A stretch of DNA of 15,783 nucleotides from a virus. The first letter of the stretch is position 1. The number at the start of each line of letters is the position of its first letter. A program made the position numbers and the translations under genes. Below are positions 1,472-13,012 of this stretch, piece by piece. Under the pieces are notes generated by a model. The model had not been told where the DNA came from. It made no database searches and saw only the letters and a list, made by a program, of their open reading frames with translations. The DNA is taken from IMG/VR virus record IMGVR_UViG_3300009666_000002; one strand, given 5' to 3'.

Positions 1472-1897
1472 TTACTGTGGAAGGGCGTTCGCGGCTCTAG
1501 TCAAATGCCCTGATCCACTTGTAATATACTGGCTTGCCAAAGTAATCTTGTCAGCATCCATCTCATCTACACCCATATAGCCATACAAACCCGCGTTTGC
1601 AAAATCATCCAGTGCGTAGCCAAATTCTTGTTTGGACGTTCTGAATGCATATGAAACGGAGCATTCATCATTCAATTTTTTCGCTTCGGTTGCATGACCA
1701 TACAAGGCTGCAAATCCGTCACTCAATGCATCAAAATCGAAGGCTTCTGATGCCGCAGTTATGTCTTCCATATCTTGGACCATAAACCCGGCGGCTACTG
1801 TGACAAGATTTATCCATTCTTGATCACCTTCCGATACTCCAAATGCAACTTGGCTTGCCAGACACAAACACAATATCGATGCGAGAACTATTTTCAA
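1472..1897 (-). CDS. Secreted protein of unknown function (Sec-type signal peptide); low-GC insert between portal and scaffold
   Basis: TTG start with GGAGGAG 5 nt upstream. The N-terminus MKIVLASILCLCLASQVAFG/VSEG has a charged n-region, a hydrophobic core and an A-x-G cleavage-like site. The mature part is acidic. GC content is visibly lower than in the flanking head genes. A T5 tract follows the stop codon directly. Confidence 0.7.
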   Translation of the reverse strand: MKIVLASILCLCLASQVAFGVSEGDQEWINLVTVAAGFMVQDMEDITAASEAFDFDALSDGFAALYGHATEAKKLNDECSVSYAFRTSKQEFGYALDDFANAGLYGYMGVDEMDADKITLASQYITSGSGHLTRAANALPQ

Positions 1898-1958: not shown

Positions 1959-3323
1959 TCAGAGGATGGGAGCCGAGCCCCCCTCCTCCTCTTCGATCCT
2001 CGCCACTTCGGCCTCCAGGTCCTCCTCGGATGCGTCGGGGTCCAGCCGGGCCAGGCTCCCTCTGGTTGAAGTCGCCCGCGCGCTACGTCTCGTTAGCTCC
2101 ACCTTTGCCGCTTCTACGGGGTCGACAGGAAGAGACGACCTCCACTCCAGGGAGACGTTGGTGAGGGCCTGAGATCCGCTCATCCGGGATGCAACCTCGA
2201 GCTCTGCAGTGGTCTTCAGGACCTCGACGAGCTTCGGCCTGATCCGGAGCCGGAGCCGGTTGACCTTCGCCAGCGTGGGGAGCATAAGGCGCTTGAGGGC
2301 GCTTCCCGACTCGGCCAGGCCGCTCTTAGTCTCACCGAAGGCAGCCGGGGACAGTTCGGCCATGACGTAGAGCTGAGAGAGAAGGGTCTCGATTTGGGTG
2401 AATGTGGCGCCCATCTGAGCATCCCACACCAGGATCTCGGGGTTCCGCTCGTCCTCGTTCAAGGCGATGTACTTCTCATCAGACGCCCACACGATCTCGC
2501 CCGTGATCGGATCTCGGACCCTGAGCCCCGACGGGCCACACATCCAGGGATCGGCGAAGGTGTCCAGGGTCCCCGAGACCTTGATCAGCCGCCGCTCGAT
2601 CTCCTCAACGATGTCGGAGACGTCTTTGAAGTCGTCCAGCCCGAAGACGCCGTCCCCTGCCTTCAGGTTGGAGAAGGGGAAGACCAGGAAGCCGGCCACC
2701 CCCGTCTCCTCCTCGGGCGTCAGGCTGGCGTATCTCGGGATGGTGGCCAGGTCGACGGGCTCTTTGATCTCTTTGCCGTCGGAAGTTAGCTCAAGGAGCC
2801 GGTGCTCTATCTTTCCGGGCTTGTGGATCTCCACCTTGACGTATCGGTCGTCGCCTTGTTTGACCTCCCAGGCCAGGGCATGAGCCGTGAAGGTTCCGGC
2901 GTCGTCGGGGTCCACTACCGGGAACCAGTGACGGGGATCTATCCGACTGATAACCCCACGCTTCCCATCCCATCGGGGTTTGAGGACCCCATCCCCGAAG
3001 GCGATCAGGTCGCTGAAGAGGTCGTAGACGAGGATCTCGAAGGCGTTATCGTCGGTGATCCGGTCCACCGTGGTCTGATCCACGGCCGTGATCTTCGGCG
3101 GGTTCCCCACAGCCAGGTCGCTGAAGAGGGTCATGATCCGCTTGAACCAGTTGACACGCATCTTGATGATCCGGGGGGCGTCGTCCTCGTTCAGTCCAGC
3201 GAAGACGAGATCGTGGTCTCCCTCCATTAGCAGCCGGTTCTTTGCATATCGAGCCAGCCGGTCTTTGTCTGGCGGCCACTTCTGGCCGGGCTTCAGAAAA
3301 TCTAACGTAGTGAATACGGTCAT
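1959..3323 (-). CDS. Portal protein
   Basis: 454 aa, immediately downstream of the large terminase with a 4-nt ATGA overlap. The N-terminus (KWPPDKDRLARYAKNRLLMEGDH) and acidic C-terminal tail are typical of SPP1-gp6-like portals. Size and position also fit. Confidence 0.8.
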   Translation of the reverse strand: MTVFTTLDFLKPGQKWPPDKDRLARYAKNRLLMEGDHDLVFAGLNEDDAPRIIKMRVNWFKRIMTLFSDLAVGNPPKITAVDQTTVDRITDDNAFEILVYDLFSDLIAFGDGVLKPRWDGKRGVISRIDPRHWFPVVDPDDAGTFTAHALAWEVKQGDDRYVKVEIHKPGKIEHRLLELTSDGKEIKEPVDLATIPRYASLTPEEETGVAGFLVFPFSNLKAGDGVFGLDDFKDVSDIVEEIERRLIKVSGTLDTFADPWMCGPSGLRVRDPITGEIVWASDEKYIALNEDERNPEILVWDAQMGATFTQIETLLSQLYVMAELSPAAFGETKSGLAESGSALKRLMLPTLAKVNRLRLRIRPKLVEVLKTTAELEVASRMSGSQALTNVSLEWRSSLPVDPVEAAKVELTRRSARATSTRGSLARLDPDASEEDLEAEVARIEEEEGGSAPIL

Positions 3324-9671: not shown

Positions 9672-10274
9672 TTATTTATTTTCGAAGATATAATCAATTG
9701 TTACAGCAAAACACGACTCTATCTTTTGATAGTGGATACTATCTCCACGATATTTTTGAGTTATTGTCCCTGCAATAAAGTCAGCTGCTTGGATGCACGG
9801 ATATTGCCTAGAATCAAGCGGCTCCAGTTTTAATGAGCACCTGTCCAATTTTTGTCCAAGGACGTCTTCATCTATCGTATACATGGACTTATCGGGGCAA
9901 ACGTTCACAGTTCCGTTTAGATTACAGTTTATAATTATTTCAAATAATAGTTTTTTAAACATGTGATCGTGTATGTGTTGTGCGCTATCGTTTATCGTCA
10001 AACTGGATTTACGTTTATGCAGTATTATATAGGCTAAATTGCTATCTGTTTTCGCGATGCATTCAAGAATACGCCTTTTGATCGCATCATTCGAGTTGTT
10101 AAATTTCAGTTCAGAAGTCTGTTTATATTTTTTAGATAATCTATTCATTCTAATACGTTTAATGCATTTATCAATCGCAGACGAGTCTTTTGTTATGATC
10201 GCAGCCAACACAAAAAAGTCGGATGCGTTTTGGCCGAATCCTAAATCACCAGACTCATCGATATAAACATCCAT
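9672..10274 (-). CDS. DUF3800-like protein (function unknown), low-GC cargo gene
   Basis: The N-terminal MDVYIDESGDLGF and C-terminal SRQYPCIQAADFIAGTI match my recollection of the DUF3800 signature (N-terminal DESG, C-terminal Q-x-AD). GC content is far below the core genes. GGGGG lies 6 nt upstream of the ATG. Confidence 0.6.
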   Translation of the reverse strand: MDVYIDESGDLGFGQNASDFFVLAAIITKDSSAIDKCIKRIRMNRLSKKYKQTSELKFNNSNDAIKRRILECIAKTDSNLAYIILHKRKSSLTINDSAQHIHDHMFKKLLFEIIINCNLNGTVNVCPDKSMYTIDEDVLGQKLDRCSLKLEPLDSRQYPCIQAADFIAGTITQKYRGDSIHYQKIESCFAVTIDYIFENK

Positions 10275-10884: not shown

Positions 10885-11436
10885 ATGAGGACATTAGAAG
10901 ACCAGCCCCTAGCGGATGCCAGAGGCCGATCCACGACCAAGGATAAAATGGCCCTTCTGGCGGATAAGCTTTTCGATGAGGACCCAAGAATTAAGCATCT
11001 TTTAACCGAGGTCCTCCAGCAGCAGGAGGATGAGATCCGTCGGCTCCAGTGCATCTCCCAGCAACGACAGAGGGAAATTCAGCGCCAGGAAGATGAGATC
11101 CACAAGCTCAGGGAGGAGCTGGACGCCTTCCGGGAAGAGGTCGCCCTCGAACGAGCATATGACCGCCAGAGGATCTCCAGGCTGGAGAATCCCATCGCTT
11201 CGCCCTCCCCACCACAAGAAGGGACTAAGACCGCCGCCAGGATCGAAGAGATGATCGGGATCCTGAAAAGACGACAGGGCCGGGCCGCCTTTTCGGAGCT
11301 GAAAGAGGATCTGAAGCTTACTGACTCCCAGTTTTCGAAGCTCATTAAAAAGCTCGATATGCGCCGGTTCGACGTGCAACGCCGCCCCCACAGCGGAAAG
11401 GAGAAAGTTCTGATCCTGAGGCAACAGATCGGATAG
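10885..11436 (+). CDS. Coiled-coil plus C-terminal winged-helix DNA-binding protein; the only plus-strand gene and a putative switch regulator
   Basis: 183 aa with AGGTGA 7 nt before the ATG. It has heptad-like Q/E/R-rich repeats, then ARIEEMIGILKRRQGRAAFSELKEDLKLTDSQFSKLIKKL (wHTH-like). The longer antisense ORF (11002..11610) looks like reverse-strand noise. Confidence 0.6.
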   Translation: MRTLEDQPLADARGRSTTKDKMALLADKLFDEDPRIKHLLTEVLQQQEDEIRRLQCISQQRQREIQRQEDEIHKLREELDAFREEVALERAYDRQRISRLENPIASPSPPQEGTKTAARIEEMIGILKRRQGRAAFSELKEDLKLTDSQFSKLIKKLDMRRFDVQRRPHSGKEKVLILRQQIG

Positions 11437-11501: not shown

Positions 11502-11669
11502 GCCGATAACACACCTCGTTAAATGTCGTGGTGTTTGTCTTGTCTAGTTGATGCTGTTTTTGTCTCTGGTTAATATAAGGTCTGGTATCTAGGCCTCTTT
11601 TGCTTATCACCTTGTTGTCTCGTCAAATAGTTGTCAGTTTCCATCGGATGGAAAGTGTGGAAAGTGAAT

Positions 11670-11720
11670 TTAGTTATGTAACTTTAATTATTAGTTATGA
11701 CCAGCAAGCTACATAACTAA
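11670..11720. repeat. 11-bp perfect inverted repeat TTAGTTATGTA / TACATAACTAA, plus an internal direct copy TTAGTTATGA; the motif is related to the 10741..10786 repeat
   Basis: The arms are at 11670..11680 and 11710..11720, with the third copy at 11691..11700. It shares the core GTTATGT with 10741..10786. It lies just downstream of the HEPN gene stop. Confidence 0.7.
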
Positions 11721-11737
11721 TTAAAAACACCCAAAAA

Positions 11738-12448
11738 TCACCCAACATTTTGTATTATCTTTCCTACACCATTAATCAAATCGAGAACTTCTTCTTCGGT
11801 TGGATCACGAGCTTTTTTATGATCACACAAATTTCGTATATCAGCCAATTTTTGTATTTCCCTCCAAGTTGGAATGTCGTACACACTATGTGCTCTAAGT
11901 GGCTCGTTTAAATCTGCGATGGTTGGGTCTTTTTTAGAAATAGGAATACAACGATTGGCTGCTACTTGTTGGAGGTGGCTTTCAAGCACTACTGCAGCCA
12001 CGGTTCCAGCTGCTCTTAAATGCCCGTTTTTATGTAGATGCATAGCGGCATCAAGCTCCGAATTAAAAAGATCTGCTTGTAGAATATCTTTAATTTTAGC
12101 TAGCGTATCATCTAAAGTATCTGCTGAGGATGATAATATTTTTATTTGAACCAAAAAATTTATTGTAATATTTAGATTTGCGGAAGGCGTTATTTTAATA
12201 GTGGCTGGCTCCGGCAACCTTTCGCAGAGTCTTTCGATGGTATGGTATCGCCGTTCAAAATCCTCGGCGCGATGTGGAATTAGTTGTTTAATAACCAAAA
12301 ACGATCTTGTGTACCAACTCTCGTATTCGAACATGAAATTTAAATGGTCTTTCAAATCATCCTCACTTTTTAAATACTCCTGTAGTTTTATACCATCTGA
12401 TATTAGTTCATTCAAACCTTCTCTTATTTCTAGATAATTGTTTCTCAT
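11738..12448 (-). CDS. HEPN-domain protein candidate (C-terminal R-N-x3-H motif), low-GC cargo gene
   Basis: The C-terminal region ELDAAMHLHKNGHLRAAGTVAAVVLESHLQQV ... REIQKLADIRNLCDHKK fits the HEPN helix pattern and the Rx4-6H motif with N after R. The N-terminal ~130 aa are helical and of unknown family. The track ORF starts at a TTG (12466); the ATG at 12448 (MRNNYLEI) is more likely. Confidence 0.55.
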   Translation of the reverse strand: MRNNYLEIREGLNELISDGIKLQEYLKSEDDLKDHLNFMFEYESWYTRSFLVIKQLIPHRAEDFERRYHTIERLCERLPEPATIKITPSANLNITINFLVQIKILSSSADTLDDTLAKIKDILQADLFNSELDAAMHLHKNGHLRAAGTVAAVVLESHLQQVAANRCIPISKKDPTIADLNEPLRAHSVYDIPTWREIQKLADIRNLCDHKKARDPTEEEVLDLINGVGKIIQNVG

Positions 12449-12507
12449 AATAATTACGTTAATCAATCTAGAATGCTATAAGTTTTCCGGGTTCTAATGT
12501 AGTTTAT

Positions 12508-12951
12508 CTACTTCTCCAGCTCGCCGCTTTCCAGGCAGTCTTTGATGTACTGCTGGACGGTCCGGTTTTTGTATCCTACCTGCTGAGCTATTGCCTGTCG
12601 GTTCCGCTCTCCGCCTCTCCACAGCTCTTTGATCTTCTCTTGTGTCGCGGTGTCCTCGGATAGCCTCTGAATTGTGGGTTTAACCTCGGGTTTAACCTCG
12701 GGTTTAACGTCTTGTTTAACCGGTTTAACGTCCTGTTTAACTTCCGGTTTAACCCCCAGCCTGCTGTCAATCAGCTTTATAAGCTCTTTTTTATCTAATA
12801 CGATTAGGCCTGTACCTTCAGGGATTGCGACGTTAAAATATTGGTTTAACGCATCCCTCACGATATCGCTTTTGGACTTCTCGGAGCGTTTAACCTCTTC
12901 GTCGATCAAGGTCTCCAGCTCCGCCGAGATCTTGACCCCTAAGAATGGCAT
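12508..12951 (-). CDS. RHH (N-terminal), VKP-rich tandem repeat linker and C-terminal HTH DNA-binding protein
   Basis: The N-terminus is LGVKISAELETLIDEEVKRSEKSKSDIVRDALNQYF (RHH pattern). The central part is VKPEVKQDVKPVKQDVKPEVKPEVKP. The C-terminus is NRQAIAQQVGYKNRTVQQYIKDCL (HTH-like). Confidence 0.7.
   Translation of the reverse strand: MPFLGVKISAELETLIDEEVKRSEKSKSDIVRDALNQYFNVAIPEGTGLIVLDKKELIKLIDSRLGVKPEVKQDVKPVKQDVKPEVKPEVKPTIQRLSEDTATQEKIKELWRGGERNRQAIAQQVGYKNRTVQQYIKDCLESGELEK
12676..12756. repeat. Seven tandem units (six of 12 bp, one of 9 bp), each containing the heptad GTTTAAC; coding (VKPx repeats)
   Basis: The sequence reads gggtttaacctc gggtttaacctc gggtttaacgtc ttgtttaac cggtttaacgtc ctgtttaacttc cggtttaacccc. 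Three more GTTTAAC copies follow at 12844, 12887 and 12952. Confidence 0.9.
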
Positions 12952-13012
12952 GTTTAACTAATTGTTAAACGATCGGTTAAATATCTATGCCAGGTTAAAC
13001 GGATCGTTTAAT
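12952..13012. promoter_or_regulatory. Promoter/operator region of the RHH-HTH gene, with GTTTAAC/GTTAAAC heptads in inverted and direct orientation around a TATA-like ATATTTAA
   Basis: A GTTTAAC-taatt-GTTAAAC palindrome (12952..12970) abuts the ATG. Other copies are GTTAAAT (12976), GTTAAAC (12994) and GTTTAAT (13006). ATATTTAA (minus strand, 12977..12984) lies 25 nt upstream of the ATG. Confidence 0.6.

Follow-up and report, generated by a model that had tools for sequence, protein, structure and literature searches.

A putative solo HEPN effector, with an N-terminal domain of no known family, on a small head-encoding circular element

The gene and its product

IMG/VR virus record IMGVR_UViG_3300009666_000002 is a stretch of 15,783 nt (hereafter the window) that represents one permutation of a circular genome, the same 93 nt being found at both of its ends. 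This study concerns a gene on its minus strand encoding a 236-residue protein, in which a C-terminal domain resembling the HEPN ribonucleases (RNases) follows an N-terminal domain that belongs to no recognised family. The gene, the two domains of its product and the motif at issue are located as follows.

11738..12448, minus strand: HEPN gene, 236 codons plus stop, starting at ATG 12448 and not at TTG 12466
12074..12448, minus strand: N-terminal domain, residues ~1-125, an up-down four-helix bundle in the AlphaFold2 (AF2) model
11741..12073, minus strand: C-terminal HEPN domain, residues ~126-236, whose closest branch in the HEPN clan is DUF4145
11819..11836, minus strand: Rx4H motif R205-N-L-C-D-H210 (in IRNLCDH), read from the sequence

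The start was placed at ATG 12448 because the N-termini of homologues align there (MRNNYLEIREG...); the TTG-started open reading frame (ORF), 11738..12466, is 18 nt longer. Residues are numbered from this ATG throughout. Since more than 260 homologues exist, most of them full length, the ORF is a real gene. Five contigs encode the window protein (P0001) at 100% identity.

The C-terminal half is a predicted HEPN domain with an intact motif

An earlier examination of the window from its letters and ORFs (hereafter the sequence-only reading) had proposed that the C-terminal part of the protein shows the HEPN helix arrangement and an R-N-x-x-x-H motif. The full-length AF2 model, computed from a 120-sequence alignment, is all-helical, with a predicted local distance difference test score (pLDDT) of 93.4 and a predicted template-modelling score (pTM) of 0.76; this model and that of the N-terminal domain alone are both models of monomers. 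The helices of the C-terminal half span residues 145-166, 178-187, 193-210 and 219-236, to which the end of a long helix (89-141) is added. The best Foldseek matches in the Protein Data Bank (PDB) are HEPN proteins, namely TM0613 (1o3u), the HepT toxin SO_3166 (5yep_C), AF_0298 (2hsb), ST0689 (1wol), the HEPN toxin 7ae9/7ae6, TT1696 (1ufb) and Csm6 (8jbb), and they span ~115-130 C-terminal columns. Foldseek probabilities lie between 0.97 and 1.0 for the single-domain HEPN matches (TM target 0.55-0.71), and between 0.66 and 1.0 when Csm6 8jbb is included. With HEPN proteins as the top Foldseek matches of a model of this pLDDT, the fold assignment of the sequence-only reading is borne out.

The motif was followed through the family. 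Among 148 representatives of 50%-identity clusters, R is found in 146, N in 144, C in 137 and H in 143, while in 120 close homologues R, C and H are invariant and N is kept in more than 90%. Three residues in the preceding HEPN helix, R145, E156 and H158, are also near-invariant. Since R, N and H are conserved across the family, IRNLCDH is not a chance match, and the R-N-x-x-x-H motif stands as first described. The points at which structure prediction and conservation could have contradicted the sequence-only reading were thus both checked: a HEPN fold is predicted, and the R and the H are conserved. As judged from the alignment, the near-invariance of R205, N206, H210, R145, E156 and H158 against a mean column identity of 44% fits a catalytic site. 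On the model, the C-terminal half is predicted to be a HEPN fold with an intact catalytic-type Rx4H dyad.

The N-terminal half is a fast-diverging four-helix bundle

Modelled alone, the N-terminal domain forms an up-down four-helix bundle with a pLDDT of 90.7. Foldseek against the PDB returns generic bundles only (the FAT domains of FAK and p130Cas, 4HB chemoreceptor ligand-binding/MCP domains and de novo designs). No match was found among the Pfam, NCBIfam, PHROG, PADLOC or PDB sequence families, and a Pfam scan of 24 N-domains of the family yielded singletons only, with no recurrent family. These library scans uphold the earlier statement that the domain has no recognisable family, and they can be completed by its fold, which is a generic four-helix bundle. 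An aromatic and polar patch made of Y42, W45, Y46, R60, F64, Y68 and Q101 is conserved.

The two domains differ in their rates of divergence. Mean identity to the query is 30% for the N-domain versus 57% for the C-domain; the corresponding values are 38% versus 60% over all pairs, and 44% versus 77% for the closest homologue. An N-domain that diverges about twice as fast as the HEPN domain is the pattern that would be expected of a sensor or specificity module attached to an effector. A part in sensing, regulation or oligomerisation is proposed for the bundle.

A large family without a name, close to DUF4145

A word-indexed search returned 264 homologues at E<=1e-3. Most of those listed align with 82-100% of the query, their identities being 36-60%, and every one is annotated as "hypothetical". 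A 120-sequence profile reached 3,867 50%-identity clusters at E<=1e-3, 2,144 at <=1e-10 and 643 at <=1e-30. Named sources of homologues include Elusimicrobia, Altiarchaeales and a Paraburkholderia megaplasmid. Neither phmmer nor the 120-sequence profile gave a usable family assignment for the query in Pfam, NCBIfam, PHROGs, PADLOC or PDB sequences, and Foldseek against the viral BFVD produced only spurious long-helix matches to tail fibres and tape measures.

The placement of the family within the HEPN clan comes from its other members, as the query matches no HEPN-clan model, even at E<=1. Sub-threshold matches among the 120 members are to DUF4145 in 22 (best E 6.8e-4), HEPN in 21 (best E 6.5e-5), RiboL-PSP-HEPN in 12 and Apea-HEPN in 8. 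Acinetobacter plasmid proteins of 224-228 residues, which PGAP names "DUF4145/HEPN domain-containing", match the C-terminal half at 34-36% identity, and an hhalign comparison of the family with one Acinetobacter protein, WP_004740261 ("DUF4145 domain-containing protein"), gave a probability of 99.6 and an E-value of 8e-25 over 205 columns. A relative of the latter, WP_005065062, passes the Pfam cut-offs for both HEPN (38.5>22) and DUF4145 (32.3>23.1). The PADLOC model PDC-M05B is weakly matched by 15 of the 120 members (best E 1.1e-4) and not by the window protein. The window protein is best treated as belonging to a sister family of DUF4145 (PF13643) within the HEPN clan, below the 23.1-bit gathering threshold. 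It can be classed as a putative solo HEPN effector whose N-terminal module is undescribed, from a large family that has no name. The family may correspond to the AbiJ-NTD1 plus DUF4145 architecture catalogued in 2013, with which it was compared by description only.

Homologues recur in restriction-modification, defence, prophage and plasmid settings

About 60 genomic contexts of homologues were compared, among them 43 IMG/VR viral or proviral loci. In two independent lineages the family gene lies inside restriction-modification (R-M) operons: one has the order hsdM-hsdS-X-hsdR, with the family gene between hsdS and hsdR, on a mobilisable element (L008-L010), and in the other the gene stands between an N6-methyltransferase and an S subunit, with a Schlafen/AlbA_2 gene adjoining (L015/16). 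Two islands are of defence type, one with ThsB-TIR, a faint Abi_alpha match and NUDIX (L006/7), the other with Z1/ResIII, HATPase_c_3 and GmrSD (L018). A Pfam census of the 129 ORFs that flank the IMG/VR members found terminase, portal, integrase, minor tail, lysozyme and Dam methylase genes, and positions in these loci are typical moron positions. Four contexts are isolated, with housekeeping genes around or a transposase adjoining.

A recurrent partner gene, whether RHH (ribbon-helix-helix), MNT, HTH (helix-turn-helix) or other, was sought in the ~60 contexts and none was found. This absence, together with the R-M, defence, prophage and plasmid settings, indicates that the gene behaves as a solo conflict or defence cassette. 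The examination of gene neighbourhoods that the sequence-only reading had called for gives recurrent defence, R-M and prophage settings and no recurrent partner gene.

Two side observations concern these neighbourhoods. The HsdR adjacent to the family gene on the mobilisable element (L008-L010, 6755..10045) has its own N-terminal DUF4145, which places two HEPN modules side by side. Fic-domain genes occur near family members in two unrelated lineages, the bacterial mobilisable element and Altiarchaeales, the Altiarchaeales copy adjoining a small Fic gene (L011/L012, 6784..7161).

The neighbouring RHH-HTH gene and the flanking DNA

The DNA on either side of the HEPN gene holds the following features.

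12508..12951, minus strand: RHH-HTH gene, upstream of the HEPN gene and 59 nt from it, Pfam RHH_1 at E 1.9e-6
12476..12482, minus strand: TATA-like CTTATAG, ~30 nt upstream of the ATG and preceded by a purine-rich GGAAAA, read from the sequence
11519..11737, minus strand: 3' flank of the cassette, conserved with a related element (L076/L077)
about 11670..11721: hairpin TTAGTTATG/CATAACTAA, carried by a 34-nt window-specific insertion
11635..11657: inverted repeat CAGTTTCCATC/GATGGAAAGTG, in the 3' flank

The heptamer GTTAAAC occurs 13 times in the window, versus 0.95 expected, and 12 of these copies fall within 12678..13000. Seven are in phase, at a spacing of 12 nt (once 9 nt), in the linker that encodes VKPE/VKQD repeats; the remaining copies lie in the RHH-coding part and in the promoter region, where an inverted pair abuts the start codon. 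The array is conserved in a related element (L029, 783..1156), with 10 copies versus 0.34 expected. GC content at third codon positions (GC3) is 60% in the RHH-HTH gene, which is element-like, versus 28% in the HEPN gene. Present in L029 without the HEPN gene and element-like in codon composition, the RHH-HTH gene with its site array is a core module of the element, and the array looks like an operator, iteron, centromere-like/partition or packaging site that lies within the gene of the protein that probably binds it.

The sequence-only reading had raised the possibility that the RHH-HTH protein is the cognate antitoxin. The two genes would then form a type II toxin-antitoxin (TA) system, in which a HEPN toxin is neutralised by the RHH-HTH protein, and would act as an addiction module for an episomal element. 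The genes are indeed same-strand neighbours separated by 59 nt, antitoxins are often RHH proteins and this one has an RHH_1 match (E 1.9e-6), and the closest homologue of the HEPN gene also follows an element-type DNA-binding protein (DUF6788-HTH). However, the pairing is not kept in either direction. L029 retains the RHH gene and its GTTAAAC array with orf131 directly after and the HEPN gene absent, another relative (L026) has the DUF6788-HTH protein without a HEPN gene, and HEPN homologues lack RHH neighbours, the ~60 other contexts showing no recurrent RHH, MNT or small partner. The two genes also differ in GC3, as given above, and with 12 of the 13 heptamers in the RHH gene or just upstream of it, a role as operator, iteron or centromere-like site of the element itself is indicated. 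Finally, the window lacks MNT, the known type of HEPN antitoxin: the scanned window ORFs contain no NTP_transf_2/MNT domain, and none is among the recurrent Pfam families of the 129 homologue neighbours. A TA pair is very unlikely on these grounds, and the antitoxin role suggested for the RHH-HTH protein is not borne out.

An RNA antitoxin, of the type III TA or AbiF-like kind, was considered and rejected as well: there are no tandem repeats flanking the HEPN gene, whose upstream spacer is 59 nt, and Rfam gives no match at the locus. The 300-nt 3' intergenic region contains no small-ORF partner, just unsupported ORFs of 20-38 residues.

As to expression, the locus of the closest homologue has CATATAG at a position comparable to that of CTTATAG, and the latter may be an independent archaeal-type promoter, a candidate for directing a leaderless or short-leader transcript. 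A scan for sigma-70 promoters and terminators gave no promoter on the HEPN strand and counts at or below shuffle expectation, the model being probably inapplicable to an archaeal host. The repeats of the 3' flank are probably a terminator or a cassette boundary in the convergent intergenic region.

The proteins that occupy the slot after orf73, to which the RHH-HTH protein belongs, are modular (window 12508..12951; L026 9757..10245; L076 67..537; L029 832..1395). Their N-terminus is either RHH or a DUF6788 zinc finger, a repeat linker (VKPE or LTKD/LPKT) forms the middle, and one of two HTHs makes the C-terminus. The repeat-encoding linkers of these proteins may double as DNA site arrays.

The gene occupies a variable slot and its low GC content appears to be a family trait

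Relatives of the element were found via its MuF protein. In L029, MuF and orf73 are 100% identical to those of the window, and the RHH protein, 61% identical and with VKPE repeats, is followed directly by the homologue of orf131, with neither the HEPN gene nor orf183 present. L029 carries a pair of genes for proteins of 61 and 91 residues (1977..2456), the larger of which is RelE/ParE-like by eye only; this pair sits where the window has other cargo, which supports a cargo hot spot. L031, a 14.5-kb contig from a Candidatus Methanocrinis natronophilus assembly, has the whole head module from TerS to orf73 at 63-88% amino-acid identity, while its second half differs from the window and has no HEPN gene. 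The closest homologue of the window protein (P0002, 57% amino-acid identity) is encoded on the short contigs L076/L077, downstream of a DUF6788-HTH protein that is homologous to the occupant of the same slot in L026. The 3' part of its gene and ~220 nt of flank have 78.9% DNA identity to 11519..12100 (blastn, 583 nt), and a hairpin within this stretch is conserved. The slot downstream of the DNA-binding protein of the element is a variable hot spot, which holds this allele, a diverged allele or nothing.

The HEPN gene has a GC content of 36.8% and a GC3 of 27.8%, where the capsid, portal, terminase, primase and MuF genes have 55.6-62% and 64-80%, respectively; for the head genes taken separately GC3 is 69-80%. 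The low-GC island noticed by the sequence-only reading is thus real, but the recent acquisition that it had suggested from this island is weakened. The family gene lies 3.5-14 GC points below its flanks in all 11 other contexts measured (11/11), and the diverged allele of L076 has 37% GC versus 51% in its flanks. A low GC content in every one of these contexts, together with a diverged low-GC allele (57% identity) at the same locus, fits a persistent trait of the family better than one recent transfer. Its source could be selection on expression, or else that family members often move horizontally among backgrounds richer in AT.

Other low-GC islands exist in the window, one formed by the DUF3800 gene and orf86 (35-40% GC) and a further one by a gene for a signal-peptide protein between portal and scaffold (44% GC). 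Just past the 3' end of the DUF3800 gene (9672..10274, minus strand), within the 35.5%-GC island, there is a full-length Rfam match to the DUF3800-X RNA motif (RF02984; 9591..9664, plus strand), scoring 75.1 bits against a gathering score of 38.2, and the DUF3800 protein matches the PADLOC candidate PDC-M04A (E 6e-10). The DUF3800 gene and the RNA motif are likely a second accessory or defence cassette. The signal-peptide protein (1472..1897, minus strand; 141 residues, N-terminus MKIVLASILCLCLASQVAFG) is 87% identical in the relatives L023, L024 and L026 and unmatched in L027, L028 and L031. The head module thus has a variable moron slot of its own, the second in the element.

The carrier element

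The same element was assembled in five samples. These assemblies measure 15,831 bp, and once their k-mer overlap of 141 nt is subtracted the circle is 15,690 bp. Nearly all of its genes are on the minus strand. Its gene content is summarised below.

Head and packaging: major capsid protein (cut by the window ends), scaffold, SPP1-type portal, TerL and an HTH-type TerS
Replication: an 862-residue prim-pol/DUF3987 primase-helicase
Two RHH proteins, the DUF3800 protein and a 131-residue protein (orf131)
10885..11436, plus strand: orf183, a 183-residue coiled-coil/winged-helix protein, the only sizeable plus-strand gene
HEPN gene, RHH-HTH protein, a 73-residue protein (orf73) and a MuF-like minor capsid protein
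A 206-residue protein, an Ad1-type head-tail adaptor and a 121-residue protein

Tail, lysis and integrase genes and tRNAs were looked for in the window and none was found. Searches by tblastn and megablast of the GenBank phages (n=50,697) gave no DNA or protein similarity to the element, and no description of it was found in the literature on Methanocrinis viruses and archaeal cf-PICIs (phage-inducible chromosomal islands that form capsids). Judging from one related contig, the host is probably a methanogenic archaeon of the Methanotrichaceae. Methanogenic archaea may thus harbour here an element that forms capsids and is satellite-like or tailless, and "satellite-like" is a reasonable label for it. 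The earlier placement of the gene on a small satellite-like element holds good; no tail genes were found, and with the HEPN gene missing from L029 its status is that of an accessory gene.

With regard to orf183, weak matches were seen to PADLOC LmuB (E 5e-5) and HTH_34. The gene and the HEPN gene are transcribed towards each other and both are absent from L029, so that joint gain or loss may be envisaged, yet its GC content (55.8%) is element-like.

Because heads and packaging are encoded without tail, lysis or integrase genes, the element is probably helper-dependent, and this bears on a second way of understanding the HEPN gene. The RNase might serve the element itself, degrading helper or host transcripts or processing RNAs of the element, in the interest of helper interference or host takeover. 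Satellites such as P4, the phage-inducible chromosomal islands (PICIs) and PLE commonly encode helper-interference functions, and the gene is kept in a diverged form at the same locus of a related element. However, L029 and L031 lack the gene, which makes it dispensable for the life cycle, and most family members reside in cellular chromosomes, R-M operons and plasmids, where there is no satellite context. An element-serving RNase is, on this evidence, unlikely. It is inseparable by computation from a role in defence, and the two are not mutually exclusive.

A proposed function in abortive infection or exclusion

Taking the analysis together, I consider it moderately probable that the protein combines a sensor with a HEPN RNase, works alone in exclusion or abortive infection, and is borne as a moron by a capsid-forming satellite-like element whose host is probably a methanogen. 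HEPN RNases perform metal-independent RNA cleavage at a composite active site of the dimer. Like the characterised enzymes, the protein would dimerise through its HEPN domains and so build the composite RNase site. This site would be latent until the N-terminal bundle senses a trigger, which might be a protein of an invading or competing virus or the lost activity of a partner. The active enzyme would then cut cellular or viral RNA (tRNA, rRNA or mRNA), leading to translation shutdown and to abortive infection or exclusion. As a moron on a 15.69-kb circular head-only element, the gene would protect the population of element-bearing cells from competing viruses. The defence, R-M, prophage and plasmid contexts of the homologues make the exclusion role put forward by the sequence-only reading a plausible one.

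Several observations weigh against this proposal. The Foldseek E-values are just 0.1-1.3 despite probabilities of ~1, and the query has no Pfam, PADLOC, NCBIfam or PHROG match at E<=1 save two chance-level Pfam matches, to EB1 (E 0.027) and DUF3370 (E 0.22). About half of the sampled cellular contexts (P0076, P0069, P0074, P0096) are without defence neighbours. The host is assigned from a single contig, 80% identical, whose bin is that of Candidatus Methanocrinis natronophilus. Lastly, the HEPN clan includes non-nuclease members (PMC3710099).

The existence of such members is one ground for a further alternative, according to which the protein is a non-catalytic nucleotide- or protein-binding regulator of the HEPN clan (KNTase_C/MtlR-like) and the low-GC island a passenger without relevance to defence. 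MtlR is among the weaker fold matches, and the contexts that are not defence-like, about half of the cellular ones sampled, would be as expected. A regulator of this kind sits poorly, however, with the near-invariance of R205, N206, H210, R145, E156 and H158 in a family whose mean column identity is 44%. The gene has no nucleotidyltransferase partner, and it has been inserted repeatedly into R-M operons and defence islands. The non-catalytic alternative is accordingly judged highly improbable.

The proposal of a sensor-plus-HEPN RNase can be given a narrower form, in which the fast-diverging N-terminal bundle would directly sense a structural or replication protein of a virus, much as portal rings are sensed by the zinc finger of RAZR, and the gene would serve immunity or exclusion as a cassette exchanged at a fixed hot spot among capsid-forming, satellite-like elements of archaea. 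This form is quite unlikely. Were it true, it would describe a satellite-borne single-protein HEPN abortive-infection system in methanogenic archaea, which would have to tell the element's own head proteins from those of a helper or competitor, and the ~3,900 clusters would amount to an unrecognised, widespread defence system common to bacteria and archaea. In bacteria, satellite-borne defence is well documented; in archaea it has barely been explored.

To a specialist a HEPN moron on a mobile element comes as no surprise, and it opens no long-standing question. If the broader proposal is right, what it adds is a HEPN effector family of thousands of clusters, unannotated and outside Pfam, NCBIfam, PHROGs and PADLOC, with a new sensor-type N-domain and a range that takes in bacteria, archaea, plasmids, prophages and R-M operons. 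The 15.7-kb head-only element is a compact natural test case for it, as its relatives hold a diverged allele or nothing at the hot spot.

Comparison with known systems

DUF4145 (PF13643) is the nearest profile family, matched by 22 of the 120 members, and the Acinetobacter homologues named DUF4145/HEPN align with the family. R-M systems with genes for HEPN proteins of DUF4145 type, as separate or fused components, have been described (Anantharaman et al. 2013, PMC3710099); likewise, homologues of the window protein lie in type I R-M operons, in one of which (L008) HsdR has an N-terminal DUF4145. The window protein differs in its compact R-N-x-x-x-H motif and in its four-helix N-domain of ~125 residues, which is not in Pfam. 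By description only, this N-domain is compatible in size and all-alpha character with AbiJ-NTD1, an alpha-helical domain of ~140 residues.

RAZR (PD-T7-4) combines a zinc finger with a DUF4145-type HEPN RNase and provides abortive infection from a single gene through RNA cleavage; it becomes active when it assembles around the portal or other ring proteins of phages (PMC13017515). The window protein resembles it in that one gene encodes an N-terminal non-catalytic domain and a C-terminal divergent HEPN domain with R and H of catalytic type. It differs from RAZR in its all-helical N-domain, which has no Cys4 zinc ribbon, and in the spacing of the catalytic residues, R146...H154 in RAZR versus Rx4H here. 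The 25 PADLOC families that the 120 members match most often do not include PD-T7-4, and the window protein itself matches no PADLOC model. With neither a zinc ribbon nor a PD-T7-4 match, identity with RAZR/PD-T7-4 was rejected.

The HEPN-MNT systems (HepT/MntA, type II/VII; SO_3166/SO_3165 5YEP, 7AE9, 6M6U) provide the best structural matches of the C-terminal domain and use Rx4-6H RNase chemistry at the HEPN dimer interface. The window protein is twice as long, has the extra N-domain, is 9-18% identical to them and has no MNT gene adjoining. A HEPN-MNT pair was rejected, no MNT having been found among the scanned window ORFs or the recurrent families next to homologues.

The anticodon nucleases PrrC and RloC are embedded in type I R-M operons; PrrC, which EcoprrI holds in a latent state, is switched on by a phage anti-restriction peptide. 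Some homologues of the window protein are, like PrrC/RloC, solo nuclease-type genes between hsd genes, and for the copies embedded in R-M operons a PrrC-like guard relation to the restriction complex would be plausible. The window protein differs from PrrC/RloC in having no ABC-ATPase/NTPase domain and no sequence similarity to them, and its element has no R-M genes.

As for the carrier, it differs from the cf-PICIs by the lack of a detected integrase, by its occurrence as a 15,690-bp circle in several samples and by its probable archaeal host. It resembles them in that it is small, encodes the major capsid protein, scaffold, portal, TerS/TerL, MuF and the Ad1 adaptor without tail or lysis genes, and carries its accessory genes between modules.

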